Part shown: in pieces, positions 4,215 through 58,763 of the stretch | Numbering within the stretch: the stretch's first letter is position 1 | How the letters are laid out: every line of letters starts with the position of its first letter | Assembly: GCA_016700415.1 (NCBI GenBank) | Contig: CP065018.1 | Location: forward strand, 3,765,284-3,829,283 | Source: Flavobacteriales bacterium | GTDB taxonomy: Bacteria > Bacteroidota > Bacteroidia > Flavobacteriales_F > PHOS-HE28 | Length of the DNA stretch: 64,000 nucleotides | Direction of reading: 5' to 3' | Translations under genes and position numbers: made by a program | Notes under the pieces: model-generated | What the model saw: the letters and a program-made list of their open reading frames with translations, nothing else | Told to the model about the DNA's origin: nothing | Database searches by the model: none

Positions 4215-6758
4215 TCAGAACGGATATCCGATCCCCAGATTGAAATTCAACTTGTTGCCCAAGGTGGTGGTCAACTCCGGTGACTTGGGCTGGAAGAGCC
4301 AGCGCTGTCCCATGGGCAGGCCGGGATCCTTGGTCTGCAGCCCGAGGTCAAAGCGTACGAGGAAGAAATCGAAGTTGAGCCGCGCGCCCACACCGGTGCC
4401 GAAGGCCAGTTCACCGGCCGCCTTGCCGATCTGGAAACCACTGCCGGGCTTGGCGGGGTTTTCCTGGAGGTCCCAGATATTCCCGATGTCCACGAAGAAG
4501 GCACCTTCGAGGTAGCCGATCAGCTTGAACCGGTATTCCGCGTTGCCTTCGATGCGGATCTCGCCCACGCGGTCGAACGCGTCCAATGGGGCGCTGTAGG
4601 AGCCGGGGCCCAGGGAGCGCGCGCGCCAGGCCCGTATGCCGTTCGCCCCACCGCTGAAGAAACTGCTTTCGAAGGGCAGTACCCCCAAGTTTCCGAAGGG
4701 CACGCCCACGCCGGCATCCACGCGGAAGGCCAGACTGCTTTTGGAGTGGATGGTGTGGTAATAGCGCATGTCGTTCTCCACCTTCACGAACTGGGCGAAA
4801 CGCACCCCGGCCAGCGTATAGAAGCTGTTGCCCGCCGTGTCGGTCTGCTGGTCCGTCCGAAAGGCCTCGTTCGTCAACCGCAGCAGGTTTCCCGCGGTCT
4901 GGAGCGTGGGGCGCCATAAAAAGACGTTCCGCTTGTGGTCCCCTTCCTGTGTGTTCAAGGTGAGGGTGGCCCGGGCACCGGCGATCACGTGGTCGGTATA
5001 GCTGTCGCGCAGCACCGCATCGTTGGAGGTCCGGATGAAATCCTGGAAGCCTGTGCTGATCAACGGGATCCGGATGATGTTCACCTCCGCCGGGTACAGG
5101 GCCATGGACAGGGTGCGGCTCTTGTTCCATTCATAGCCGTAGCTCATCTTGGCCAAGGTGCGCGTATAGTCAGGCCGGCGCTGATAGTTGTACAGCAGAT
5201 TTACGGCGGTACGCCTGCCCCAGGTGTTCGGCCAGCGGTCATCGGTGTTCCAGAAGGGGATGATGAAGCGGGGAAAGCGGATGGTGACCTCCGGGCCGAT
5301 CTCCACGGTGTTGAAGAGCACGTCGTGGCCCACGTCGGAACTGGCATCACCGGCGGAGCCGCGGCCGTCCAGGCTCTGTTGCGCCTCTAAGCCGAGCGCC
5401 ATCCGGGCCTGTATGGAGCCCATGCTCCGGAAGAGGTTTTTATGGCGGTAGTTCAGGCTGACGGAGGTGCCCAAGAAGCCGCCGCGGTTGGTGCCGAAGC
5501 CTTCGAGCGAGAGGCTCTGCCGCTTGCTGGGGATGACGTCGATCAAGCAATCGGCCTGGTTGTGGGACCGGGTCTGTGTGGTGTCGAAGGTGATGTCAAC
5601 GCGGTTGAACACGTTCAGGTTGAGCAGGCGGCGGTACGTGCGGTCGTTGGTGGTCTCGCTGAACTTGGACCCTCCCTTCAGGAGGAGGCTGCTGCTCAAT
5701 GCCTTCGGGCGGTAGGCCGGTCTCTTCCCGGTGAAAAGGAAGGTGTAGTTCTTGTATTCCACGGTGTCCGACGGCAAGGGTTTCTTGCCGAAGCCGGGGC
5801 GTTGCGTCATGTCCACCGTGATGTCCTCCAGGAAGTACACGGTCCCTTCCGGGGTGCCCGCCAAGCCGCGCCTCCCGCGGGCCAAGGGACGCTCGAAGCG
5901 GAGCTGCAGGTCCACCTCCTGGTCCCCGGCGCTGGTGTCCGCCACATATTGCAGCAGGTCCCGCGTGAAATAGAGGTAGCCCTGCTTCCGGAGCATTTCG
6001 GTGATGCGGTTGCGTTCCTTATCGAGCACGTCGGCGTCGAAGCGGATGCCGGGGACCAGCAGGGTGGAAGCCCGGGAGGCGCGCACCAGGCTGTCGATGG
6101 CGGGATCGTCCACGGACCATTCCGCCGAACAGATCGTGTAAGGTCGGCCCGCCGTGATGCGGTATTCCACCTCCGCCTTGGGTTGGCGGAAGGCACTGCC
6201 CCGCTTGTTCGAAAAAAGCCTGGAGCGCTCGAAGAAGATGGTGTCGGAAACGGTGGCATTGAAGAAACCCTCTTTGCCGAGGTAGAGCTTCAGTTGGTCC
6301 ACGCTGCGGTCCACCAAGGAACTGTCCAGGATCACCGGAGCCTCGCCCACATCTTCGCGCAGCCACACACGGAGCGTCCGCCGGCACTCTTTGTCCTTCA
6401 CTTGCTTCGGTTCCTTGCCGCGCGCGATGCGCTTGGCGTTTTTCGCTACGGCCTTTTCCGCTCGCCGGACGTTCTTCACGGCACAGATCGAATCCACCTC
6501 TGCCTTGCGACTTGCCGTTTTTTCCGGGCTGCTCCAGTTGTAGAAGTGGAGGTAAAGGCGTTGGCCCAGCACTTTGTTGTTGGGCTTCTGCTTGAGGATG
6601 CCCTTCAGCTCATCCGTGGTAAGGTCCTTGGCATCTGACTTCACGATGTTCCGCACCAAGAGATGCTCGCCCTTGGGCACGCGTTTGGTCGGGTTGCACG
6701 CCGCCAGCAGGGCCGTGACGGCGACCAAGAGGGGGATATGGAACTTGCTGTAGCGCAC
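4215..6758 (-). CDS. Omp85/BamA-TamA family outer-membrane protein with POTRA region and C-terminal beta-barrel
   Basis: 847 aa, N-terminal lipoprotein-like signal (LLAACN), repeated POTRA-like segments, C-terminal aromatic-rich beta-strands ending ...LGIGYPF. Confidence 0.7.
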   Translation of the reverse strand: MRYSKFHIPLLVAVTALLAACNPTKRVPKGEHLLVRNIVKSDAKDLTTDELKGILKQKPNNKVLGQRLYLHFYNWSSPEKTASRKAEVDSICAVKNVRRAEKAVAKNAKRIARGKEPKQVKDKECRRTLRVWLREDVGEAPVILDSSLVDRSVDQLKLYLGKEGFFNATVSDTIFFERSRLFSNKRGSAFRQPKAEVEYRITAGRPYTICSAEWSVDDPAIDSLVRASRASTLLVPGIRFDADVLDKERNRITEMLRKQGYLYFTRDLLQYVADTSAGDQEVDLQLRFERPLARGRRGLAGTPEGTVYFLEDITVDMTQRPGFGKKPLPSDTVEYKNYTFLFTGKRPAYRPKALSSSLLLKGGSKFSETTNDRTYRRLLNLNVFNRVDITFDTTQTRSHNQADCLIDVIPSKRQSLSLEGFGTNRGGFLGTSVSLNYRHKNLFRSMGSIQARMALGLEAQQSLDGRGSAGDASSDVGHDVLFNTVEIGPEVTIRFPRFIIPFWNTDDRWPNTWGRRTAVNLLYNYQRRPDYTRTLAKMSYGYEWNKSRTLSMALYPAEVNIIRIPLISTGFQDFIRTSNDAVLRDSYTDHVIAGARATLTLNTQEGDHKRNVFLWRPTLQTAGNLLRLTNEAFRTDQQTDTAGNSFYTLAGVRFAQFVKVENDMRYYHTIHSKSSLAFRVDAGVGVPFGNLGVLPFESSFFSGGANGIRAWRARSLGPGSYSAPLDAFDRVGEIRIEGNAEYRFKLIGYLEGAFFVDIGNIWDLQENPAKPGSGFQIGKAAGELAFGTGVGARLNFDFFLVRFDLGLQTKDPGLPMGQRWLFQPKSPELTTTLGNKLNFNLGIGYPF

Positions 6759-6835
6759 GGATAGGCGGAAGGACGGCTAATTTGCGCGGCGATGTACGGA
6801 AAGACCATGCCACGGCGGGCGAAGATATTCGGCAA

Positions 6836-7573
6836 ATGAGCGGGGGCCATGTGAAGCGCATGCGTGCGCTGCATCAGCGCAAGTTCCGGGAGGCCGAAGG
6901 GCTGTTCCTGGTGCAGGGGCGGAAGATGCTGCGCGAACTGCTGGCCACCCGGTTCGAGGTGGTGGAGCTGCATGCCACGGAAGAAGCGGCCCGTGAAATG
7001 GGCCTTGCCGACGCGGTCATTTCCCCTGCGCATGATCTGGAGCGCATGGGCACTTTTACTCAGGGCAACGAGATGGTAGCGGTGGTGCGGAAACCGGCCC
7101 CGGCCTCGCTGATCTTGCCAGCGGCCGACCGTTTCGTGCTGGCCGTGGACGACGTTTCCGACCCCGGCAACCTCGGCACATTGCTGCGCATCGCGGACTG
7201 GTTCGGAGCGGAACAGTTGTGGTGCTCCACCGAAAGCGTGGAGGTCTGGAATCCGAAATGCGTGCAGGCGAGCATGGGTTCGATCTTCCGCGTACCGGTG
7301 GTGCCGACCGAACTGCCCGCTGCATTGCGGCAGGCTGCTGAAGGAGGCGTTCATATCTACAAGGCCGAAGCCTCGGGCGCGGATGTTTTCACCGTGAAGT
7401 TGGCCCGACCCGCCGTGCTGGTGCTGGGCAGTGAATCACACGGACTGTCGAAATGCGTGTTGGATGCGCCCGGAAGTTCCATCGCTATTCCGTCCTTCGG
7501 CGGGGCGGAATCGTTGAACGTTTCAGCGGCGGCGGCTGCGCTTTGTATGGAGCTGGTGCGGCATGGGCGGTGA
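6836..7573 (+). CDS. TrmH/SpoU-family RNA 2'-O-methyltransferase
   Basis: MSGGHVKRMRALHQRKFREAEGLFLVQG (substrate-binding N-domain) then SPOUT motifs DDVSDPGNLGTLLRIADWFG, LVLGSESHGLS, IPSFGGAESLNVSAAAA; start at 6836 preferred over track 6782. Confidence 0.8.
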   Translation: MSGGHVKRMRALHQRKFREAEGLFLVQGRKMLRELLATRFEVVELHATEEAAREMGLADAVISPAHDLERMGTFTQGNEMVAVVRKPAPASLILPAADRFVLAVDDVSDPGNLGTLLRIADWFGAEQLWCSTESVEVWNPKCVQASMGSIFRVPVVPTELPAALRQAAEGGVHIYKAEASGADVFTVKLARPAVLVLGSESHGLSKCVLDAPGSSIAIPSFGGAESLNVSAAAAALCMELVRHGR

Positions 7574-7627
7574 TCGTTCCTGTTCCCTCAGATTATGCAC
7601 AAAGGATTAAAAGTAGGCAAAACATAG

Positions 7628-9014
7628 GGGAGTATTCCGAAATGTGTGTCAATCTGCACTGAGGCACGGTGACATTCTCCTGGCCCCAAGCCAAAGGAGA
7701 ATGTCTCCGTGCCGGATCCTCAGACCAGCACATGGGCCAATCTTTCGGGGTACATGTTGCTCAACGACTGAAGGATCTGCGGCCAGCTGCGGACCTTTCT
7801 CTTCCAGCTTTTCTCGTTGTGCTTAAGTGTCAAATATAATTGCTTCTCCAAGGCACTTTCGCTGATGAACGCACCCTTGGTCTTGGTGGCCTTGCGAAGA
7901 ATGCGGTGCAGGGCCTCCACCGGGTTCGTGGTGTAGATCACCCTGCGTATGGCATCGGGATGATCAAAGAACGGGCTTAGCTCGCACCAGTCTTTCTCCC
8001 ACTTGGCCGCGATCTCCGGATATCTCCCTACCCATTCCCGCTTGAACTCCTGGAGCTTTTCCCAGGCCGCTTCGGGACTATCCTGCTGGTAGATCGAACG
8101 CAGTCCTTGGCAAACTGTCTTGTAGTCCTTCCAAGAGACGAACTTCAAGCTGGTGCGCACCATATGGACGATGCAGCGCTGTACGACCGCTCGCGTGAAT
8201 ACGCCTTGGATCGCCTCGCTGAAGCCGTTCAGGCCGTCCACGCTGAAGAACAGCACGTCCTTTACCCCGCGGTCCTTGATGTTCTCCAGAACGCGCGCCC
8301 AATGGCGTGCTCCTTCCGCATCGCCGATGAACAAGCCGAGAACATCACGTTCCCCGTCCATCCTCACCCCGTATACCGAGTAAACGGCTTTGGTCAACAC
8401 CTTTCTATTCTCCCGGACCTTGTAGTGGACCGCATCGAGATAAATGACCACGTACACCTCTTCCAGCGGGCGGTTGCGCCATGTCTCGATCTCCTCGAAC
8501 ACCCGGTCGGTGATCGAGCTGATGAACGATGGGGAGTAGCTCACCCCGTACATCTTCTTTAGATGGTCCCCAATGTCCTCGTAGCTGGTGCCCTTGCCGT
8601 ACAGATGCAGGATCTGGTTCTCCAGTTCGGGGGCCAGCGACCGGTCCCACTTCTTGATGATCGTCGGCTCAAAACTGCCGTTGCGGTCTCGCGGAGGCCT
8701 GACCGAAACGGGACCCAGTGCCGTTCTCACGGTCTTGTCGGTGTAGCCGTTGCGCCTATTGCTCCGCTTCTTCTCCTGGTCCAAATGCGCGTCCATCTCC
8801 CCTTCGAAGGCGGCGGAAAGCAGGCGGCCGATCATGCCCGTGAGCACACCGTGTTCTCCGATCAGGCCCTTGCCTTCTGTCAATCCTTGGATGGCTTCTT
8901 GCTCGAACTTGGCGTAGTCGAACGCCTTCTCTTTTTCAACTTTTCTCTTTTTCATGGGGCAAGTTTCTGAATGGTTTGTCAAACTATCCTTGACACACTT
9001 TTCAGAATACTCTC
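7628..9014. mobile_element. IS256-family insertion sequence (about 1387 bp) with 8-bp target-site duplication AAACATAG
   Basis: Imperfect terminal IRs GGGAGTATTCCGAAATGTGTGTCAA (7628-) and reverse complement of ...TTGACACACTTTTCAGAATACTCTC (-9014); identical direct repeats AAACATAG at 7620-7627 and 9015-9022; encodes mutator-type transposase. Confidence 0.85.
7720..8955 (-). CDS. IS256-family (mutator-type) transposase
   Basis: MKKRKVEKEKAFDYAKFEQEAIQGL...YLDAVHYKVRENRKV...FFSVDGLNGF...CIVHMVRTS; DDE transposase of IS256 family; track ORF extends to 8982 (MTNHSETCP...) which would run into the right IR. Confidence 0.85.
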   Translation of the reverse strand: MKKRKVEKEKAFDYAKFEQEAIQGLTEGKGLIGEHGVLTGMIGRLLSAAFEGEMDAHLDQEKKRSNRRNGYTDKTVRTALGPVSVRPPRDRNGSFEPTIIKKWDRSLAPELENQILHLYGKGTSYEDIGDHLKKMYGVSYSPSFISSITDRVFEEIETWRNRPLEEVYVVIYLDAVHYKVRENRKVLTKAVYSVYGVRMDGERDVLGLFIGDAEGARHWARVLENIKDRGVKDVLFFSVDGLNGFSEAIQGVFTRAVVQRCIVHMVRTSLKFVSWKDYKTVCQGLRSIYQQDSPEAAWEKLQEFKREWVGRYPEIAAKWEKDWCELSPFFDHPDAIRRVIYTTNPVEALHRILRKATKTKGAFISESALEKQLYLTLKHNEKSWKRKVRSWPQILQSLSNMYPERLAHVLV

Positions 9015-9171
9015 AAACATAGTGACTCCCGTAAACTACATTTTACTAAGCTTCACTCCCGAAATGGAACGATCCGCCACACATTCGCCCGCAGGGATGT
9101 CCGCTTCGGGGCCGATACGTATCGGACCGAACAGTTCATCAGCGTGGGTGCCGAGCGAAGTCGAGGTGCAT

Positions 9172-9404
9172 CAACCCGTCAACCCGTCAACCCGTCAACC
9201 CGTCAACCCGTCAACCCGTCAACCCGTCAACCCGTCAACCCGTCAACCCGTCAACCCGTCAACCCGTCAACCCGTCAACCCGTCAACCCGTCAACCCGTC
9301 AACCCGTCAACCCGTCAACCCGTCAACCCGTCAACCCGTCAACCCGTCAACCCGTCAACCCGTCAACCCGTCAACCCGTCAACCCGTCAACCCGTCAACC
9401 CGTC
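9172..9404. repeat. perfect tandem microsatellite, 8-bp unit CAACCCGT (CCGTCAAC) x about 29
   Basis: Uninterrupted cgtcaacc repeats from 9172 to 9404; unit length not a multiple of 3; plus strand open in all frames, minus strand has a stop in each unit. Confidence 0.95.
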
Positions 9405-9487
9405 TTCTAAAGTTACCTTCAGTACTTCCTCCTCCACGCTCCCGGCTTGGGTGTTTCCACACGCGGCATAGTGCAAAACCCCTTGCC

Positions 9488-9997
9488 ATGTTGCGCGGTG
9501 GCCTCTTAGCCTTGTTCCTGGCCTGCCCGCTTTGGGCTTACCTTCGGGTTCCCATGGAAACCGTGCAGTCCCGGTCCGCATGGGCCTGCGTGCGATCCGC
9601 TGCGGGCATGGGCATGGACAAGCACAGCCATAGTTGGAACGCTGATGCAAGAACCAACCTGCGTTGCGAACAGGGACCCGATACCACGAAAACATCCCGT
9701 GCGGAACAGGTGGGCAGCTACCAACACCCGGACCCGGAAGTGTATAGGGAAATACTGTGGCAGATGAAGATGGATCGCCAGCGCCAAGCGACAACGCTGG
9801 AAGGATGCGCAAGCCAACTGCATGAACTTCAACAGCGTGTGGATTTCCTGGAATTGTACGTGGACGAGCTGCGGAAGCACATTGCTTACGAACTTCCCAT
9901 CTCACATGAGGCTCCTACACTCACACCTGCACAAGCGCAATACCTGCGGGAATTGATCCAGAGACCAGTGCCGACCCCATCAACAGAAGAAAAATAA
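9488..9997 (+). CDS. hypothetical protein (weak call)
   Basis: 169-aa ORF downstream of microsatellite; N-terminus hydrophobic (LLALFLACPLWAYL); no recognisable domain; could be non-coding. Confidence 0.25.
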   Translation: MLRGGLLALFLACPLWAYLRVPMETVQSRSAWACVRSAAGMGMDKHSHSWNADARTNLRCEQGPDTTKTSRAEQVGSYQHPDPEVYREILWQMKMDRQRQATTLEGCASQLHELQQRVDFLELYVDELRKHIAYELPISHEAPTLTPAQAQYLRELIQRPVPTPSTEEK

Positions 9998-10239
9998 AAA
10001 AAGCCCCCGGTGCTATGAACACCGAGGGCCGTAACTCCAGTCCCACGAACACGCGAATGAACATGAAACAGAGATAGCAAAGATACGATCCTCCCTGGAG
10101 CAAGCCGCATGCCGGGTGGGACGGTGAGCACCCGGTATCCACGATCACGTGGCCGGAAGCGGAAAGCATCTTTGGGAAAACCTAGCGTGTCTTCCAAGTG
10201 CCGAAGAAGCGGTGAACAAGAAAGGAGAAAAACAAAAAC

Positions 10240-10258
10240 ATGCTCAAAGCACTCCTTC
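10240..10258 (+). other. orphaned start codon and first six codons (MLKALL) of the T9SS cargo gene, separated from the rest of the gene by the IS3 insertion
   Basis: ATG at 10240 preceded by AGGAGA; deleting 10259..11527 (IS plus one TSD copy) joins in-frame to 11528 giving MLKALLPSLTNLATRAIPLALVAALAVKATAQ, a canonical signal peptide. Confidence 0.7.
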
Positions 10259-10313
10259 TGTAGTACTCCCCAAAAACTGGACAGGTAGCTAAGGTGGCTA
10301 AACTTGTCCAAGG

Positions 10314-10751
10314 ATGACCCGCAAAAGCAGAAGGAAGTTCACTCCCGCATTCAAGGCGCAAGTTGCGCTTGAGGCCGTGAAGGAGAACCATACGATGGCA
10401 GAGCTGGCGATGCGCTTTGAGATCGCACCAGCACAGATCGGCCAATGGAAGAAGCAGTTGGCGGAGAACGCCGCTGGGGTCTTTGAAGGGACCCCGACGG
10501 CGTCCTCCGCCATGCCAGGTGGTCACGACCCCGAAAAATTGTTCGCCGAGATCGGCAGGTTGAAAATGGAGAACGACTTGCTAAAAAAACGGTCCGATGA
10601 GCGTGGCACAAAAGCGGCATGCCATTGCCACCGTTCAGGAAGGCAGCATCATGGAGCGCTGCCGGGCGCTGGACCTTGCACGCAGCAGCTTCTACTATCA
10701 GCCCAAAGGAGAAAGCGCGTTGAACTTGGAATTGATGCGTTTGATGGATGA
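10314..10751 (+). CDS. IS3-family transposase OrfA (HTH); the track ORF reads through the frameshift site into non-native C-terminus
   Basis: MTRKSRRKFTPAFKAQVALEAVKENHTMAELAMRFEIAPAQIGQWKKQLAENAAGVFEG...LFAEIGRLKMENDLLKK; canonical OrfA ends near the A7 run (about 10590). Confidence 0.8.
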   Translation: MTRKSRRKFTPAFKAQVALEAVKENHTMAELAMRFEIAPAQIGQWKKQLAENAAGVFEGTPTASSAMPGGHDPEKLFAEIGRLKMENDLLKKRSDERGTKAACHCHRSGRQHHGALPGAGPCTQQLLLSAQRRKRVELGIDAFDG

Positions 10752-11495
10752 AGAGGACACCAAGCATTGCTTCCATGGGTGATCGGCATGCGCGACTTTC
10801 TGAGGCTTGAAAAGGGCTATTGGGTGAACGAAAAGCGGGTGCGCAGGCTCCTTCGGCTAATGGGCTTGGAGGCCGTTGCGCCCAAGCCTGACCTGAGCAA
10901 ACCCGCCAACGGGCATAGGGTCTATCCCTACTTGTTGAGAGGTGTGCAGATTGAAGCTCCGGGGCATGTTTGGAGCACCGACATCACCTACATCGCCATG
11001 GGCAAAGGGTTCCTGTATCTCACCGCCGTGATGGACTGGCACAGCCGCTACGTGCTCTCTTGGCAGATCAGCAACACCTTGGACACCTCCTTCTGTCTGG
11101 AAGCTTTGCATGGTGCGCTGTTGCAATATCCTGCACCAATGATCTTCAATACCGACCAAGGCAGCCAATACACCAGCGACCTCTTTACCGGGGCGTTGAT
11201 CCAGGAAGGCATCAAGGTGAGCATGGATGGCAAGGGCCGGGCTACGGACAATGCGTTCATCGAACGACTTTGGAGAAGCGTGAAGCAGCAATGCGTCTAT
11301 CGCCATAGCCCCGCCGATGGGAATGAGCTGCGCAGCCTTCTGGCCGAGTACTTCGCCTATTACAACCACCAACGACCACACCAGCACCTGGATGGACTGA
11401 CCCCGGCACACCTTTACTTTGGTCTGCCCGATACCCGGAACCGTACCCTGACACCAAACCTTGTTGAACCCCAATTCACACTAACAACCGCCTGA
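10585..11495 (+). pseudogene. IS3-family transposase OrfB (DDE integrase core), frame-disrupted
   Basis: OrfB N-terminal segment (ERCRALDLARSSFYYQPKGESALNLELMRLMDEEDTKHCFHG) lies in the +1 frame relative to OrfA and terminates at 10782; the catalytic core (WVIGMRDFLRLEKGYWVNEKRVRRLLRLMGL...DQGSQYTS...RPHQHLDGLTP) resumes in the OrfA frame from 10767, implying an extra indel near ttccatgggtgatcgg. Confidence 0.55.
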
Positions 11496-11532
11496 AACCT
11501 GTCCAGTAAATCGGGAGTACCTCATTCCTTCC

Positions 11533-12522
11533 TTGACAAACCTCGCCACTCGTGCAATCCCCTTGGCGCTTGTGGCTGCTCTCGCTGTGAAAGCGACGGC
11601 ACAAAACCTCGTTCCGAACCCGAGCTTCGAGGATACGGCCCGATGTAATGCGGAATACGACCCGGTGCTTTTATCTGCACCACCATGGTTCAAACCGACC
11701 ACCGCCTCTTCGGATATTTACGATAATGATCTTGAACAACTCTGCGGTATCGCATGGGATCCCGCGAATCCGGACGTTCAGGCCAGTGGTTTCCAATTTG
11801 CGCGAACAGGAACTCGCTTTGCAGGTGCCTTCCATTGGTTTGGTGCAAATAGTTCTGACTCGAAAGACTATTTTACCGTTAAGCTAACTGAGGCTCTGAT
11901 TGAGCAAACGGCCTACGACGTTTCGCTATACTACAGCCGAGCTGACGGATATGCCTTTGCCACAGACCGCATCAGTGTCTTTTTCGGGCCGGACAGTTTC
12001 TATGTGCATGATTACCGCACTTTGCATGTGCAGCCGCAAGTTGACTTGATGGACCCGAATAACGAGTACCTAACTAACGCAGAGGATTGGGTCCTGCTAA
12101 CGGGTTCATTTGTCGCAACGGGAGGCGAACGGTACATGACCATCGGTTCTTTCTTGGACAGTTCCCAAGTGAACGGCACGACCGCACCCACAGGAAATCT
12201 GCCATACGCCTATTACTACTATGATGACATTGCGGTGTCGCCAGTACATCAATCAGGTATCGATGAATTGGAATTTTCCGGAGCAGTAACGGGTGACGGC
12301 AACCTGCGGTTGATAGGATTGTCGGATGGCACCTATGTAGCGCGATTGATCGATCGAATTGGTCGGGTCATTCAAGAATTCAAACAAGTCCGCTCCATGG
12401 CAGGGCATGCGGACATCGCAATAGGGGACCAAGGCATGGCTCACGGGCTATACTTGGTATCGGTTGAGTCAAGCGAAGGGAGGGGGGCCACCCGGTTCGT
12501 TTATACCGGTAGGCGGCAATGA
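11533..12522 (+). pseudogene. T9SS-secreted protein gene (signal peptide, beta-rich body, C-terminal T9SS sorting domain) interrupted in codon 7 by the IS3 element
   Basis: Track ORF begins at TTG 11533 with partial signal peptide TNLATRAIPLALVAALAVKATAQ; C-terminus LRLIGLSDGTYVARLIDRIGRVIQEF...GLYLVSVESSEGRGATRFVYTG resembles T9SS type-A CTD; authentic start is upstream of the IS at 10240. Confidence 0.65.
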
Positions 12523-12540
12523 GCGTAACACCTCACAACA

Positions 12541-14854
12541 ATGAAGATCGCAATACTTTTGGCTGCTTTGGCCATTCTGGCGAGCACCTCAACTAAGGCA
12601 CAAGGGCCTCCGGACTGGAACACGATCGGTAACAATACTTTGAATCCGGTGACAAGTTTTTTGGGAAACACGGATGGCATTCCCATCAACTTTCGCACGA
12701 ACAACGTACTGCGGATGCGTCTCAACGAAAGCCTGCCCGGCCAGCCGGTGAACAACTTCCCGAACGTGGACCTGAGCGGTCACCTTGGGATCGGGGCGCC
12801 GGTGCCACCGCAAGCGCTGAGCTTTCTGCACATCAACAACAATGGCAGCTTTTTCGCGGGCTTCCGGCCGTGGATGCGCAGGGGTGAGCATGTCCGAGAA
12901 CACGGACTGGATGTACGTGGGTGCGAAGAACCAGGGCGAGGACCTCGTTGATGCCGTGATCAACTGGGGTGACAATAAGGAAGCCGACCCTACCTATGGT
13001 CCGGATGCGTTGCGTTTCATTTTCACGCGAACGATGAGCAACATCAATATCGCCTCCCAGATGGACGGATTGGAGTTGGCCCGTATCATTCCGGACCCCT
13101 CTGGGAATCAGGGTTACTTCGGCATTGGGGATTACTTCACCGCTGCGACGAACCCTTCGGAGCGGTTGGATGTGCTGAATGGCCGTGTGGCGATCCGGCA
13201 ATTGCCCACGGACCCGGTAAGCGCCAGCATGGAGGCCGTTGTCCTGAACACCACCACCGGCGTGCTGGAACACCGTCCGTTCCCCACCACCACCGGTGGC
13301 CCGGATTGTGATTGGACCCCGATCGCTGGTGCGATCAATGAACTCCGCACAGCGAATGCACCGGCAGGGACCGTGGGTGCTTGCCCTGATCAACGCTGGA
13401 AGGTACAGATCGGGACGCCATCGACCGCAGGGCCATACAGGCTAACAGTCGGGGTGAACCAGGTCACCTGTGCGAATTGTGGGATAACCGGAGGGACCAA
13501 TGTGGATGTTAAAGGTGATGGGGGCGGCAGTGTGAATGGTTCAAACATACTTGTAGAGTCCGCAACTTCCGGGTCCGCCAATCAGATCAAGGGGCTTAAA
13601 ATCGTGACCCGCAATGCGGGGTCGATCAACTACGGCATAGAGGTGGATGCGACGAACAATGTTGCGAATATAAGCAGCTCTGTTTATGGGGCATGGATCA
13701 AAGCAGTGAACCAAGCGGGAGGGAAAACCGCACAATTGTATGGCCTGCGTGGCAGTGCTGAGGCAACGGATGTTAATTCGGCTACACTTGCGAAGGGGGT
13801 GTGGGGTAGGGCGGTCAATGGGATTACAAACGATGGCTTACGTGGGGAAGCCACTGGAGGGAGCAGCTCCACAAACTATGGAGTTTACTCGGATGCCTCA
13901 AGTGGTGTGATGAACTATGGGTTGCATGCTAAAGGGTCCGGTGCCACGGGTTCCACCAACTATGGGGTCTGGACCTTAGGGCAAAACGGGACCACGAACT
14001 ATGGGGTCCTCGCAAATGCGATCGGTGGTGGGGGAAGCACCAACTATGGGGTCTGGGCCACCGCGTCGGGTGGGGCCACCAACTGGGCCGGGTACTTCAA
14101 AGGTCGAGTGATGATCACGGACTCGGCTTGGGTGCTGGGCAACCAGATCGTGACTTCGGACGCGAACCTGAAAACGAACGTGGAGGACCTTACCGGGGCA
14201 TTGGACAAGGTGTTGCAGATGCAGCCGAAAACGTATGAGTTCATTCAGGATGCTCTGCCACAGGCGCACCTGACCGAAGGGCCGCAAGTCGGCCTTATCG
14301 CTCAAGAACTGGAGCCCATCTTGCCGGAGGCCGTGGGGCATACCACAGTGCCTGCGGAACTGGACAGTCTGGGAGCGGAGATTTTTCCGGCCGTAGCGAT
14401 CGCGGGGATCGACTATAACAAAGTGACCCCGGTGTTGATCGGTGCGATCAAAGAGCAGCAAGCGATGATCGATCAGCAACAAGCCACCATTGCCCAACTC
14501 CAAGACCAGATCAACCATTGTTGCGCAACACAAGGTGATGCGGCCCAAAGAGGAAGTGCGGAACAAGGGTCCATGCCCCAGGAGAACGAACTCCAAGAGC
14601 AGCGCCTGTTGATCATCCCCAACCCGGTGGCGGACCTCACCACGTTGGAATACTACGTGCCCAAAGCGGGCAAGGTGAGCTTGCAGGTGAGCACCAGCGA
14701 TGGGAAGCCTTTGGCCACCTTGCGTGAGGAACTGGCCGAAACCGGTGCATACAACTACAGTTGGAACACCACCAAGTTGGCGGCGGGCACCTACTTCTGC
14801 ACCTTCATGCTGGACGGTGCCGTGGTGGTGAAGCGTGCGGTGAAGGTGAAGTGA
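12541..14854 (+). CDS. tail-fiber-like T9SS cargo protein with NYGV repeats, peptidase-S74-type intramolecular chaperone domain and T9SS C-terminal domain; apparent frameshift near 12850
   Basis: 12541 ORF gives signal peptide MKIAILLAALAILASTSTKAQ plus N-terminal region; switches frame (+1) to the 12842..14854 ORF; repeated STNYGV motifs; TSDANLKTNVEDL...GLIAQELEPILPEAV...IDYNKVTPVLIGAIKEQQAMIDQQQATIAQLQDQI (endosialidase-chaperone-like); C-terminal LLIIPNPVADLTTLEYYVP...GTYFCTFMLDGAVVVKRAVKV = T9SS CTD. Confidence 0.6.
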
Positions 14855-14948
14855 GAAGAACAGGATGCAAGTGACCGCAGGGTCCGCTGATCATCGGAGA
14901 TGATGGTTGGCGAGACCCTGCGGCTGCATGGGTTGCTTTTGCCAGCGT

Positions 14949-16505
14949 CTATGTCGTTTCCGCGATCGCCCGCGCCACTCGCAAACCGTCCATCGCAGCG
15001 CTGACGATACCTCCGGCATAGCCTGCACCTTCAGCACACGGGTACAACCCACGCACTTGCGGATGCTCCAGTGTTTCCAGATCGCGGGGAATGCGGACCG
15101 GCGAGCTGGTGCGCGATTCCACGGCCACCAGCACGGCCTCGTTGGTGCGGTAGCCGTGCATTTTTTCGCCGAAGGCTTTCAACCCTTCACGCAGACGGGA
15201 TGCGATCGCTTGGGGCAGCACCTCGTCCATTGTTGCGGGGACGATCCCCGGCGGGTAGCTGCACGCGGGAAGGTCAATGCTGAGGCGACGTCCGATAAAA
15301 TCCTCCATGCGTTGCGCGGGCGCGGACTGCCGCTCGCCGCCGAATTTCCAGGCGTTGCGTTCCAGGCTCTGCTGCCAGCGCAGGCCCGCCAAGGCGGCGT
15401 CCGGCCCTTTGCTTTCCGGGAGGTCCGCCGGGTCCACGGCCACCACGATGCCGCTGTTGGCGAAGGGATTGTTGCGCTTGCTGGGGCTCCAGCCGTTGGT
15501 GACCACCTCGCCGGGCGCGGTGGCGCAGGGCGCGATGATGCCGCCGGGGCACATGCAGAAGCTGTACACGCCGCGCCCTTCCACCTGCTGCACCACGCTG
15601 TAGCTGGCGGGCGGCAGGAAGGGGTCGCGGACGGTGCTGTGGTAGCGGATCCGGTCGATCACCGATTGCGGATGCTCGATGCGCACGCCCATGGCGAATG
15701 ACTTCGCCTCGATCGCGATGCCTTTGGCGTGAAGCAGCTCGAAGATGTCGCGGGCGGAATGGCCCGTGGCCAGCACCACCGAAGTGGCGAGGACCTCATC
15801 GCCCTGTGCCGTACGCACGCCGTGTATGCGACCGTCGGTGATCAGGAAGTCGTTCACGCGTGTGCCGAATCGCACTTCGCCGCCCGCCGCTTCAATGGCC
15901 TCGCGCATAGCGGTGACGATCTCGGGGAGCTTGTTGGTGCCGATGTGCGGATGGGCGTCCACGAGGATGTCCGGCGAGGCACCGAACGCGGTGAAGGTCT
16001 TCAGCACCGCCGCCACATCGCCGCGCTTGTCGCTGCGGGTATAGAGCTTACCGTCGCTGTAGGTGCCCGCGCCGCCTTCACCGAAGCAGTAATTGCTGTC
16101 GGGGTCCACCACGTGATCGCGGTTGATGGCGGCGAGGTCGCGGCGCCGTGCGCGGACGTCCTTGCCGCGCTCCAGAATGATGGGCCGTAGCCCGTGTTCG
16201 ATGCAGCCCAACGCCGCGAATAGGCCGGCAGGTCCGCAGCCCACGATGATCACGGGTTCCGCCTTGCTGACATCGGGCAGTTCCGGCGGTGCTTCCGGCA
16301 GTTCCGGGAATTCTTCTTCCGTGGAAACTTCCACACGCAAGCGCACCAAGGGAAGTTTGCTGCGCGCATCGATGGAGCGTTTCACCACGCGTGCGCCCTT
16401 TACTTGTTCAAGCTTCACCGAACAGGCTTCAGCGGCTGCTTCGCGCACCAGTGCCGGGTCGGCGGCCTCTTGCGGAGGAAGGGCGATGTCCACGGTGCGG
16501 TTCAT
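14949..16505 (-). CDS. FAD-dependent oxidoreductase (uncharacterized FAD-dependent dehydrogenase family)
   Basis: 518 aa; Rossmann dinucleotide motif VIIVGCGPAGLFAAL, ...VLATGHSARD..., C-terminal GLYPCAEGAGYAGGIVSAAMDG. Confidence 0.75.
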   Translation of the reverse strand: MNRTVDIALPPQEAADPALVREAAAEACSVKLEQVKGARVVKRSIDARSKLPLVRLRVEVSTEEEFPELPEAPPELPDVSKAEPVIIVGCGPAGLFAALGCIEHGLRPIILERGKDVRARRRDLAAINRDHVVDPDSNYCFGEGGAGTYSDGKLYTRSDKRGDVAAVLKTFTAFGASPDILVDAHPHIGTNKLPEIVTAMREAIEAAGGEVRFGTRVNDFLITDGRIHGVRTAQGDEVLATSVVLATGHSARDIFELLHAKGIAIEAKSFAMGVRIEHPQSVIDRIRYHSTVRDPFLPPASYSVVQQVEGRGVYSFCMCPGGIIAPCATAPGEVVTNGWSPSKRNNPFANSGIVVAVDPADLPESKGPDAALAGLRWQQSLERNAWKFGGERQSAPAQRMEDFIGRRLSIDLPACSYPPGIVPATMDEVLPQAIASRLREGLKAFGEKMHGYRTNEAVLVAVESRTSSPVRIPRDLETLEHPQVRGLYPCAEGAGYAGGIVSAAMDGLRVARAIAETT

Positions 16506-17391: not shown

Positions 17392-17618
17392 CAGGGCTAT
17401 CGGGTCTTGAGCGCCCTGCGGGCGCCTAAGACCGCGTGTTCTTTACCACGGATGGACACGGATCAACACGGATCCAAGCCCCAAGGTCGATGAGCCTATG
17501 CTTAGGGATCCATTGCTCTGTGCTGTCCCTCATCCGTGTACATCCGTGTCCATCCGTGGTTCCTTGCATGCTGTGCGAAGCGCCGATAGGCGCGAGAAAT
17601 TAAGACCCGATAGCCCTG
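17392..17618. mobile_element. MITE-like non-autonomous element (227 bp) with perfect 17-bp terminal inverted repeats and 10-bp target-site duplication
   Basis: TIRs CAGGGCTATCGGGTCTT (17392-17408) and AAGACCCGATAGCCCTG (17602-17618); direct repeats TCATTTGCGG at 17382-17391 and 17619-17628; interior has inverted triple heptads (cacggat x3 / atccgtg x3); no ORF. Confidence 0.7.
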
Positions 17619-30786: not shown

Positions 30787-30883
30787 TGCACAAAGGTGTT
30801 GACGAGGATCGCTTCAGTGGTGACAGGCCGGAGGCCTTAAGATCTCACGCACTCGCGAAAAACGCGAGCGCAAGCATGGGTGG

Positions 30884-57336: not shown

Positions 57337-57370
57337 TTATCCGCGTCCATCCGTGTCCATCCGTGGTTCG
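57337..57370. repeat. partial copy of the inner arm of the 17392..17618 MITE-like element
   Basis: ATCCGCGTCCATCCGTGTCCATCCGTGGTTCG vs 17531..17563 CATCCGTGTACATCCGTGTCCATCCGTGGTTCC; no TIRs present here. Confidence 0.6.
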
Positions 57371-57386
57371 TTCTAAAATCGACAAC

Positions 57387-58763
57387 ATGCAACACAAGAC
57401 CATCATCGAGCCCTTCCGCATCAAGAGCGTGGAGCCCATCAGCGTGGGCACCGAAGCGGAGCGCACGCAATACCTGAAGGACGCCCACTACAATCCGTTC
57501 CTGCTGCGATCGGACAATGTGGTGATCGACTTCATGACCGATAGCGGCACCAGCGCCATGAGCGCCCGGCAATGGGCGGGCATGATGGAGGGCGATGAGG
57601 CCTATGCCGGTTCGCGGAGCTGGGAGCGCATGGAGCGGGAAGTGCGGGACCTCACCGGCATGGCGTACATCCTCCCCACGCACCAAGGCCGCGCCGCGGA
57701 ACGCATCATCTATGGCCACTTGGGCGGCCCGGGCAAGGTCTTCATCAGCAACACGCACTTCGATACCACACGCGCCAACATCGAGTTCAGCGGCGCCACC
57801 GCCATCGACATCCCCATCGCCGAAGGGAAGGACACGGCCTTGGAGCATCCGTTCAAGGGCAACATGGACGTGGGCGAGCTGGACCGCTTGCTGAAGGAGC
57901 ACAAGGGCCATGTGGGCGCGGTGATCCTCACGGTGACCAACAACAGCGGAGGCGGCCAGCCGGTGAGCATGGCCAATGCGGAGAGCATCGCCGCGATCTG
58001 CAAGCGGCACGGTGTGCTCTACTTGCTGGATTGCTGCCGCATCGCGGAGAACAGCTGGTTCATCAAGCACCGGGAGGAAGGCATGGAAGGCTTGACCTAT
58101 CGCCAGATCGCGCAACGCATGTTCGCCCTGACCGATGGCGCCGTGATGAGCGCCAAGAAGGACGCGCTGGTGAACATGGGCGGCTTTCTGGCCTTGAAGG
58201 ACGAGGTCTTGGCCGAGGCCTGCATCAACCTCTTGATCATCACGGAGGGCTTTGCGACCTATGGCGGATTGTCCGGCCGCGACATGGAGGCGATCGCGAT
58301 CGGCCTGCAGGAGATCTTCGATCCGCACTATCTGGACTACCGGATCAAGAGCACCCTTTTCCTCGGGAAGAAGATGCACGAGCTGGGCGTTCCGCTGATG
58401 ATGCCCATCGGTGGGCACGCGGTGTACGTGGACGCGAAGAAGCTGTATCCCCACATCCCGCCGCATGAATATCCCGGGCAGGCCCTGGTGGGCGAACTGT
58501 ACAAGCTGGGCGGCATCCGCACGGTGGAGATCGGCTCCGTGATGTTCGGCACCTACAACGCCGACGGCACGCTGAATCCCGCGCCCATGGAGCTGGTGCG
58601 CTTAGCCATTCCGCGCCGGGTGTACACGCAGAGCCACATCGAATACGTGGTGGAGACCTTCGAGGAGATCATGAAGCAGCGCGACCGGGTACGCGGGTTG
58701 AAGATCACCAAGGAGCCGCGTTTCCTGCGCCACTTCACCGCGCACTTCGAGCCATTGACATGA
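57387..58763 (+). CDS. tnaA: tryptophanase (beta-eliminating lyase, TnaA-like paralog)
   Basis: MQHKTIIEPFRIKSVEPI..., NTHFDTTRANIE (TnaA-type vs [11 protein letters not shown]), [13 protein letters not shown]-terminal PRFLRHFTAHFEPL like E. coli TnaA PKVLRHFTAKLKEV. Confidence 0.8.
   Translation: MQHKTIIEPFRIKSVEPISVGTEAERTQYLKDAHYNPFLLRSDNVVIDFMTDSGTSAMSARQWAGMMEGDEAYAGSRSWERMEREVRDLTGMAYILPTHQGRAAERIIYGHLGGPGKVFISNTHFDTTRANIEFSGATAIDIPIAEGKDTALEHPFKGNMDVGELDRLLKEHKGHVGAVILTVTNNSGGGQPVSMANAESIAAICKRHGVLYLLDCCRIAENSWFIKHREEGMEGLTYRQIAQRMFALTDGAVMSAKKDALVNMGGFLALKDEVLAEACINLLIITEGFATYGGLSGRDMEAIAIGLQEIFDPHYLDYRIKSTLFLGKKMHELGVPLMMPIGGHAVYVDAKKLYPHIPPHEYPGQALVGELYKLGGIRTVEIGSVMFGTYNADGTLNPAPMELVRLAIPRRVYTQSHIEYVVETFEEIMKQRDRVRGLKITKEPRFLRHFTAHFEPLT

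Follow-up and report, generated by a model that had tools for sequence, protein, structure and literature searches.

What does a long, perfect octamer repeat do in front of a small gene of an environmental bacterium, if it does anything at all? We pursued this question for a tandem array in 64,000 nucleotides of a Flavobacteriales bacterium genome (assembly GCA_016700415.1, contig CP065018.1, positions 3,765,284 to 3,829,283), hereafter called the window, in which the array had been singled out by an earlier examination of the letters alone (the sequence-only reading). The array precedes ORF169, an open reading frame (ORF) for a protein of 169 aa. On balance, we favor the interpretation that it is a slippage-driven octanucleotide simple sequence repeat (SSR), held at a fixed and persistent site in the leader of a small operon, where its length would modulate expression in a graded fashion. 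The operon is best read as comprising ORF169, a secreted "QNLVPNPSFE"-family gene, and a type IX secretion system (T9SS) tail-fiber-like gene, all within a strain-variable islet of an activated-sludge Flavobacteriales bacterium. Neutral expansion is a serious rival explanation, as two insertion sequences (IS) disrupt the window haplotype.

The array and its copy number in close strains

Direct reading of the letters gives a perfect octamer array at positions 9171 to 9404 of the + strand, with 29.25 copies of the unit. Tandem Repeats Finder returned the same interval (period 8, 29.2 copies, 100% matches, 0 indels), confirming the array of about 29 perfect 8-bp units announced by the sequence-only reading. 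In register, the unit is TCAACCCG, which is equivalent to CCGTCAAC and corresponds to GGGTTGAC on the - strand. A 16-mer probe spanning two units matched 29 times, versus 0.08 matches expected from dinucleotide-preserving shuffles, and neither this probe nor Tandem Repeats Finder found a second copy of the array in the window. The sense strand is 50% C and 12.5% G. It contains 0 stop codons in any frame, and the - strand, (GTTGACGG), has TGA in every frame, so that the earlier description of an open + strand and a closed - strand holds for the sequence itself.

To follow copy number, we used a set of close strains that share the window haplotype, carry the same IS256 and IS3 insertions, and have flanks at least 99.9% identical to those of the window; these flanks differ from the window by 4 to 8 substitutions per approximately 6.2 kb, plus a few single-base indels that resemble assembly errors. 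The array measures 234 nt (29.25 copies) in the window, in L046 (GCA_963852915.1), and in L080 (GCA_016702475.1); L048 (JGI 3300027694) has the same length, with a single T replaced by G in unit 16. It measures 243 nt, or 30 units plus one extra C, in L079 (GCA_016716825.1) and 250 nt, or 31.25 units, in L081 (GCA_016707385.1). The array is real and not an assembly artifact: the 234-nt tract recurs in other assemblies, one of them with an internal substitution. A change in unit number is detectable where only 0.2 substitutions are expected in 234 nt. Counts of 29.25, about 30, and 31.25 between such similar flanks, together with a wide spread of counts and turnover of the unit in more distant haplotypes, agree with the slippage-prone tract that had been anticipated. 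A uniform count, with relatives lacking the array, had been named in advance as the outcome that would speak for a neutral or artifactual tract; relatives do carry arrays, and their counts differ.

Short-read contigs report much shorter tracts, 26 nt (3.25 copies) in L047 and 18 nt (2.25 copies) in L082, both of which are congruent with 234 modulo 8. The 26-nt length at least is the one expected for the shortest de Bruijn path through the repeat cycle. Across the short-read assemblies L047, L062, L082, and L084, arrays span 18 to 34 nt, versus 234 to 250 nt in long-contig assemblies, and these short lengths agree with the long form modulo 8. We considered contraction as the source of the 18-, 26-, 30-, and 34-nt lengths and treated them instead as probable collapse, most of them being the minimum above a typical small k; the shortening is likely a systematic collapse artifact for repeats of this kind. 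The contigs of L049 and L083 end inside the array and were not counted as alleles. The practical warning is that short-read metagenome assemblies give 2 to 4 copies where long-contig assemblies give 29 to 31. A separate observation concerns single-base deletions of the window relative to L046 at positions 7776, 10582, and 10778, which fall within the transposase genes of IS256 and IS3; one affects an A homopolymer. These are either pseudogenized IS copies or long-read consensus errors, and they bear on how far exact counts can be trusted.

The sequence-only reading had placed the array immediately downstream of an IS256 element. That element, of the IS256 family, occupies 7628 to 9014 on the - strand and is bounded by the terminal inverted repeats GGGAGTATTCCGAAATGTGTGTCAA and GAGAGTATTCTGAAAAGTGTGTCAA (the second being the reverse complement of the right end); its transposase lies at 7720 to 8982 (-; Pfam Transposase_mut, E=1e-100). 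Between its end at 9014 and the array are 156 nt of unique, conserved leader. An origin of the array as a by-product of IS256, for example from the 8-bp target duplication, might be suspected from the equal lengths of unit and duplication and from the mere 156 nt between array and IS end, and an assembly artifact would be a related explanation. The IS256 target duplication, AAACATAG at 7620 to 7627 and 9015 to 9022, is ordinary, intact, and unrelated to the array unit, however, and orthologous loci free of the IS carry arrays. In orthologous leaders without IS256, the sequence is continuous through AAACATA(G/T/C). The tract is also found in independent assemblies, in one of which an internal single-nucleotide polymorphism let a k=127 assembly resolve it. 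We therefore regard the by-product and artifact explanations as refuted and give them next to no credence. The array is older than the IS256 insertion and independent of that element, and the association of the two is incidental.

A conserved site with changing content

Every haplotype of the leader module (the window plus four further haplotypes) has an octamer array between the same two flanks. Upstream is a conserved 26- to 27-nt motif, (T)TGGGTGCCGAGCGAAGTCGAGGTGCA (9145 to 9170, +), which directly adjoins the array on its 5' side in all haplotypes, and downstream is a conserved proximal leader of 78 to 83 nt (9405 to 9487, +) that is near-invariant across all haplotypes. ORF169 (9488 to 9997, +) follows, its start codon 83 nt past the array end, as the sequence-only reading had implied by placing the array ahead of the ORF at 9488. 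The unit is TCAACCCG in the window (29.25 copies) and in L063 and L072 (4.25 copies each). It is TCAGCTCA in L060 (13 copies, on a 243-kb contig), in L061 and L071 (6.75 copies), in L062 and L084 (3.75 copies), and in L073 (2.6 copies), in which ORF169 is absent and the leader runs straight into the hairpin and the QNLV gene described below. In the register CGTCAACC versus CATCAGCT, the two unit types are three transitions apart, and copy number across the module ranges from 2.6 to 31.

Fossil units of the other type lie upstream of the motif, one TCATCAGC in the window (9136 to 9143) and two CAACCCGT in L060, which indicates that both unit types are old. L061, L071, and L073 have two copies of the motif, each with octamer units of its own downstream. 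Fossil units and duplicated motifs together make the ancestral state look like a higher-order repeat of motif plus octamers. All arrays are internally perfect although ORF169 has diverged between haplotypes to a synonymous divergence (dS) of approximately 0.3, from which it follows that slippage turnover by repeated contraction and expansion (concerted evolution) has outpaced point mutation in all lineages. The distances from motif to ATG (317, 182, 132, 117, and 108 nt) share no common helical phase, and a strict face-of-the-helix model is therefore not favored. When the 27-nt motif was scanned against metagenomes, matches outside the module were only chance matches in unrelated genes; the motif is not a dispersed element.

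Unit turnover bears on whether the DNA structure of the array could be its function. The - strand, which is the template for ORF169, reads (GGGTTGAC)n, a G-quadruplex pattern with an i-motif-capable C strand that might block or pause a polymerase. The G3 tracts with 5-nt loops are canonical and readable from the sequence, and sister units in other genomes keep GGGTT while varying the last three bases (GGGTTGAT, GGGTTAAC, GGGTTTGC, and GGGTTTTC). Against this, the orthologous arrays of L060, L061, L071, L073, and L084 are built from CATCAGCT, a unit lacking G-runs on both strands, and in related arrays the unit CCTGTCAA likewise interrupts the G3 tract. Four or more G3 tracts with loops of 1 to 7 nt are thus not conserved among the orthologues, and G-quadruplex potential is not what is conserved at the site. 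We consider this explanation improbable. Both unit types also contain restriction-type palindromic cores (in the window at 9171 to 9404 and in L060 at 10125 to 10228): GTCAAC/GTTGAC fits GTYRAC, a HincII-type site, and the sister unit has AGCT. This may be coincidence, or the arrays may be dense targets for methylation or restriction.

ORF169 itself is a maintained gene. It is open in four lineages at 72 to 100% amino acid identity, with a 6-nt in-frame indel and a ratio of nonsynonymous to synonymous divergence of 0.4 to 0.7. Its N terminus (MLRGGLLALFLACPLWA...) is hydrophobic and signal-peptide-like from the annotated ATG onward, and its C-terminal half is coiled-coil-like; the protein belongs to no known family and had no match in Pfam, NCBIfam, PHROGs, or PDB sequences. 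The dS is 0.09 to 0.19 in the first 30 codons, versus approximately 0.3 elsewhere. A comparison of window positions 9488 to 9997 with L061, L063, and L072 revealed a mosaic in which the 3' 85 codons and the downstream sequence are identical or nearly so between haplotypes with differing 5' halves and leaders (dS of 0 versus 0.3), a pattern that implies a recombination breakpoint inside the gene.

Could the array be part of that gene? Under translational phase variation, an upstream start would be read through the array into ORF169, and the unit number would switch the product ON or OFF. No frame of the array's + strand is closed, the gene call in L060 starts at an upstream ATG and runs across 13 units into the ORF (269 aa; P0004), and L072 has an in-frame GTG inside the motif, all of which would suit a coding repeat. 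The motif and flanks, however, fall in lineage-dependent frames through 1-nt indels: the 27-nt motif would read WVPSEVEVH in the window but LGAKRSRGT in L060, owing to a 1-nt indel further upstream, and +1 and -1 indels offset each other between the proximal leaders of the window and L072. In the window, no stop interrupts the ORF169 frame over the 438 nt before the ATG, and this stretch offers 0 ATG, GTG, or TTG codons. The type 2 leader is unrelated at the protein level, and the signal-peptide-like segment begins exactly at the annotated ATG. Phase variation by frameshift within an ORF involves a repeat inside a conserved translated frame, and the array is not in one. Because the conserved flanks lie in different frames between lineages and the window has no in-frame upstream start, the array is non-coding, in line with the leaning of the sequence-only reading, and we find a translated repeat very improbable. 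The 269-aa protein of L060 and the 166-aa "PVNPSTRQ" ORF of the window are gene-caller artifacts of a stop-free repeat. When the pseudo-ORF that spans the array was used as a protein query, the matches included many spurious ORFs on similar octamer arrays elsewhere and no further alleles of the locus.

Leader, islet, and proposed regulation

If the array is not translated, is it transcribed? A sigma-70 promoter scan of positions 8800 to 10400 detected no promoter. The sole positionally conserved Bacteroidetes -7-like box (TAnnTTTG, one mismatch) is TACATTTT at 9037 to 9044, approximately 25 nt past the block that opens the module and upstream of the array; the promoter-motif scan found no such box between the array and the ATG. 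This arrangement weakly favors a long 5' untranslated region (UTR) that includes the array, so that the array is probably transcribed. The box lies in the type 1 leader (9023 to 9144, +), which was delimited by alignment of five haplotypes and the promoter-motif scan and which also holds a perfect 14-bp palindrome, CCGATACGTATCGG, at 9112 to 9125. Folding predictions give the RNA of the array much less structure than shuffled sequence (z = +3.7), and when 80-nt windows on the + strand of the 64 kb are ranked by excess of C over G, the array is in the top three. The sister unit has three C and one G and is likewise C>G. A predicted hairpin, CCACACGCG...CGCGGTGG, encloses the start codon, has its 5' arm in the proximal leader, and is the same in the folds of the window and L060. 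Rfam searches of the window and of L060 and L072, two orthologues free of the IS, gave only noise-level matches, caused by the repeat itself.

We postulate that transcription starts upstream of the array, which would then sit in a C-rich, G-poor, unstructured 5' UTR and set expression in a graded fashion through its length. The mechanism we prefer is a length-tunable platform for Rho loading (rut-like, after Rho utilization sites) or for an RNA-binding protein. Alternatively, the array could alter how far the conserved elements upstream lie from the start region, and a further candidate is that leader length acts on the conserved AUG-enclosing hairpin. The effect would be graded at most and not ON/OFF, because no reading frame is involved, which falls short of the phase-variable role suggested by the sequence-only reading. 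Since the unit types differ in sequence and in folding, any model of sequence-specific binding is weak.

The ancestral order of the locus, without the IS elements, is the SpoU stop, a 30-nt block, a leader of approximately 120 nt, the 27-nt motif, the array, the 83-nt proximal leader, and ORF169, followed by a hairpin, approximately 200 nt, the "AQNLVPNPSFE"-family gene, and the T9SS tail-fiber-like gene. Upstream of the module are an Omp85/BamA-type gene (4215 to 6758, -) and the SpoU-type RNA methyltransferase gene (6782 to 7573, +). The conserved 30-nt block GCACAAAGGATTAAAAGTAGGCAAAACATA (7597 to 7626, +) opens the leader module 23 nt past the methylase stop; it is unique in the window and marks the module start in L060, L061/62, L063, L071, and L072. 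Directly past the ORF169 stop is a GC-rich hairpin (10002 to 10030), conserved in L060, L061, L063, L073, and L084, with a T-run on the - strand side only. On the + strand, an A-run precedes the stem, which makes the hairpin terminator-like for leftward transcription, yet there is no - strand gene to its right. Transcription on the + strand may continue past it into the next gene. That gene, the secreted "AQNLVPNPSFE"-family member (10240 to 12522, +), is split into 10240 to 10258 and 11528 to 12522 by an IS3-family element (orfA/orfB; 10259 to 11524, +) that has inverted repeats, matches Pfam HTH_Tnp_1 and rve, and is flanked by a 3-bp TTC target duplication (10256 to 10258 and 11525 to 11527). 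The reading frame is interrupted after codon 6, and L062, L083, and L084 lack the IS3 and have an intact gene start. Further downstream, positions 12842 to 14854 encode a tail-fiber-like T9SS protein with Peptidase_S74 and a Por_Secre_tail sorting domain. The ORF at 12541 to 12951 (136 aa, with a signal peptide) overlaps this 670-aa gene in another frame, and the two resemble one gene split by a frameshift, which could be true decay or a residual assembly indel.

The islet varies among co-occurring strains. Same-species contigs are 99.9% identical to the window up to 7575 and from 14960 onward, and in L050 and L051 the intervening 7.4 kb (7576 to 14959) is swapped for a 1.5-kb segment (L050 8449 to 9998) that carries another, homologous QNLVPNPSFE-family allele of 334 aa. 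The variable region is bounded by the SpoU methylase gene and a flavin adenine dinucleotide (FAD)-dependent oxidoreductase gene, and the related contigs come from wastewater and activated-sludge metagenomes; the MBK/QQS accessions look like those of the Danish activated-sludge long-read MAG (metagenome-assembled genome) set. A hairpin resembling repetitive extragenic palindromic (REP) elements, AAGCACGCGCTCGCGTTTTTCGCGAGTGCGTG...GAAGnCCTCCGGCC, borders variable cassettes in L050 (8470 to 8540 and 9900 to 9960), L060 (9780 to 9830), and L063 (100 to 160); in the window it is not found beside the array, and its sole weak match is at 30858. When the array and proximal leader were scanned against viral contigs for a phage link, there were 0 matches.

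How much of this arrangement reflects selection? In the neutral view, slippage keeps regenerating a mutational hotspot, and the 29 copies are a recent runaway expansion, of no regulatory effect, in a decaying, IS-ridden locus. Every strain of the window haplotype has IS256 in the leader and IS3 in the next gene, the largest arrays are confined to this IS-disrupted haplotype, similar arrays stand at housekeeping genes of other Bacteroidota with no obvious logic, and a regulatory role is something we infer. On the other side, the array has kept its position between conserved flanks in five haplotypes whose ORFs differ at a dS of approximately 0.3, and conservation is stronger in the flanking leader than at synonymous positions of the gene, as the low dS of the first 30 codons illustrates. 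Non-functional repeats are normally purged from bacterial genomes, which also counts against neutrality. We consider a purely neutral array possible but rather unlikely.

Several points also weigh against the regulatory interpretation that we favor. Four assemblies share exactly 234 nt, so that the tract is fairly stable rather than wildly unstable, and the 30- and 31-unit counts come from long-contig metagenome-assembled genomes (MAGs) with residual single-base indel errors. The short counts of L047 and L082 were set aside as alleles, as they fit repeat collapse in short-read de Bruijn assemblies. The promoter assignment depends on one weak motif, and the two unit types are alike in composition (C-rich and G-poor) and not in sequence or RNA folding. 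Finally, two IS elements have hit the locus in the window haplotype, where selection may no longer act. With 22 nt between IS256 and the candidate -7 box downstream of it, and with IS3 splitting the next gene, the operon may be crippled there, and the 29- to 31-copy state may represent expansion under relaxed constraint.

Structurally, the array is nonetheless an SSR contingency-type locus: a perfect tract above chance length, located in a leader, with a copy number that differs among close strains. It is not an instance of in-frame phase variation, of an IS-derived repeat, of a conserved G-quadruplex, or of an Rfam family, and its regulatory effect is putative. As for what a surface determinant would look like, ORF169 is signal-peptide-like and belongs to no family, the downstream genes encode secreted or T9SS products, and the islet is strain-variable. 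SSR-based tuning of expression is textbook knowledge for host-adapted pathogens. To our knowledge, it is hardly documented in free-living Bacteroidota, in which variation is usually credited to invertible promoters. The locus combines turnover of the unit at an orthologous repeat site with a conserved companion motif and with measurable copy-number differences among near-identical wastewater strains, and it could serve as a tractable natural system in which to ask whether repeat length acts as an expression rheostat for secreted and T9SS proteins in environmental bacteria.

Wider occurrence and known systems

Among 185,579 species-representative genomes, at least four tandem CCGTCAAC units occur in 45 stretches from many phyla, none with more than 14 copies. 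In four Bacteroidota loci (L019, L034, L035, and L037), three of which are from Saprospiraceae MAGs, the arrays are sense-oriented and lie 25 to 76 nt upstream of genes that match Pfam families of histidyl-tRNA synthetase, thiamine pyrophosphate (TPP) enzymes, MauE/DoxX, and CutC. These arrays are often mixed with the one-step variants CCATCAAC, CCGTTAAC, CCGCAAAC, and CCTGTCAA. The Gemmatimonadaceae MAG DASTVV01 (L009, L022, L024, L044, and others) has at least 12 CCGTCAAC arrays, most of which lie in the short gaps between convergent genes, and degenerate inverted copies often stand beside them. We speculate that the array in the window is the largest known member of an unrecognized class of sense-strand C-rich, G-poor octamer arrays (CCGTCAAC and its one-step variants) in Bacteroidota 5' leaders, whose members would be platforms of tunable length for Rho or some other binder of single-stranded RNA. 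The unit also occurs between convergent genes in a Gemmatimonadaceae. This reading is a long shot. If true, the class would provide environmental bacteria with a heritable and rapidly adjustable gene-dosage control based on repeat number, comparable to and distinct from the TAACTGA and cyanobacterial heptamers discussed below. A literature search for the array unit in any rotation returned no relevant paper.

Other repeats show related layouts. In two of the Bacteroidota loci (L019, 600 to 760, and L035, 3678 to 3885), an array is followed by an inverted copy, giving long imperfect hairpins. The window itself has an intergenic decamer, (CACGGATNNA)x3, and its inverted form, (CATCCGTGTN)x3, around a center of approximately 55 nt (17440 to 17560), and (TCCATCCGTG)x2.7 at 57339 to 57365, approximately 20 nt upstream of an ATG at 57387. 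These decamers mirror the octamer layouts of other genomes, namely, array plus inverted array and sense array before a start codon. In L060, heptamer arrays (CTCAAGA x6 and TTTCAAC x6; 5028 to 5176) are intergenic between DUF58 and MoxR-type genes.

Prokaryotic long SSRs (LSSRs) with units of 5 to 11 bp have been described (Mrazek et al. 2007, as cited in PMC11868660), and the array resembles them and contingency loci in being a perfect tract far above random length, with a unit that is not a multiple of 3, non-coding, and hypervariable between close strains. Phase variation described in Bacteroidota is dominated by invertible promoters and not by SSRs (PMC11868660). The likeness to rut sites is purely compositional: the array is longer than 80 nt, its sense strand is 50% C, 12.5% G, and predicted to be unstructured, and YC dinucleotides are regularly spaced along it, whereas natural rut sites are not perfect tandem repeats.

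A second comparison is with TAACTGA heptamers, which are dispersed intergenic repeats in Beggiatoaceae, Cyanobacteria, and some Bacteroidetes (PMC4679880). These and the cyanobacterial short tandemly repeated repetitive (STRR) heptamers are intergenic, sense-oriented, and located a few to tens of nucleotides upstream of start codons, with up to tens of copies in Bacteroidetes; post-transcriptional binding has been proposed as their function. The octamer has the same sense orientation, 83 nt upstream of a start in the window and 25 to 76 nt upstream in the four Bacteroidota loci, and it recurs at the 12 or more loci of the single Gemmatimonadaceae MAG. It differs in being an octamer rather than a heptamer, with one array in the 64-kb window, and its unit is not conserved at the orthologous site, which argues against a sequence-specific reader.

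The closest functional analogue is the set of repeats upstream of the hmw adhesin genes of Haemophilus influenzae. Their copy number reportedly has a graded effect, more repeats giving less expression, rather than a frame-dependent ON/OFF one. In H. influenzae biogroup aegyptius, the region presumed to hold the promoters of the hmw adhesin genes has 12 to 15 copies of the octamer GCATCATC, and hmw1A and hmw2A of non-typeable H. influenzae have upstream repeats of the 7-bp unit ATCTTTC (PMC3309571). The systems differ in that the host here is an environmental Flavobacteriales bacterium and not a host-adapted pathogen, the effect on expression is here a presumed one, the array is about twice as long and has beside it a conserved 27-nt motif, which can be copied along with its units, and the regulated proteins are unrelated (here a small protein of no family and T9SS cargo). 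In both, a tandem unit of 7 to 8 bp in double-digit copy number occupies non-coding DNA just upstream of a gene for a secreted or surface protein, with the copy number depending on the strain and the unit sequence, at the same site, depending on the lineage.

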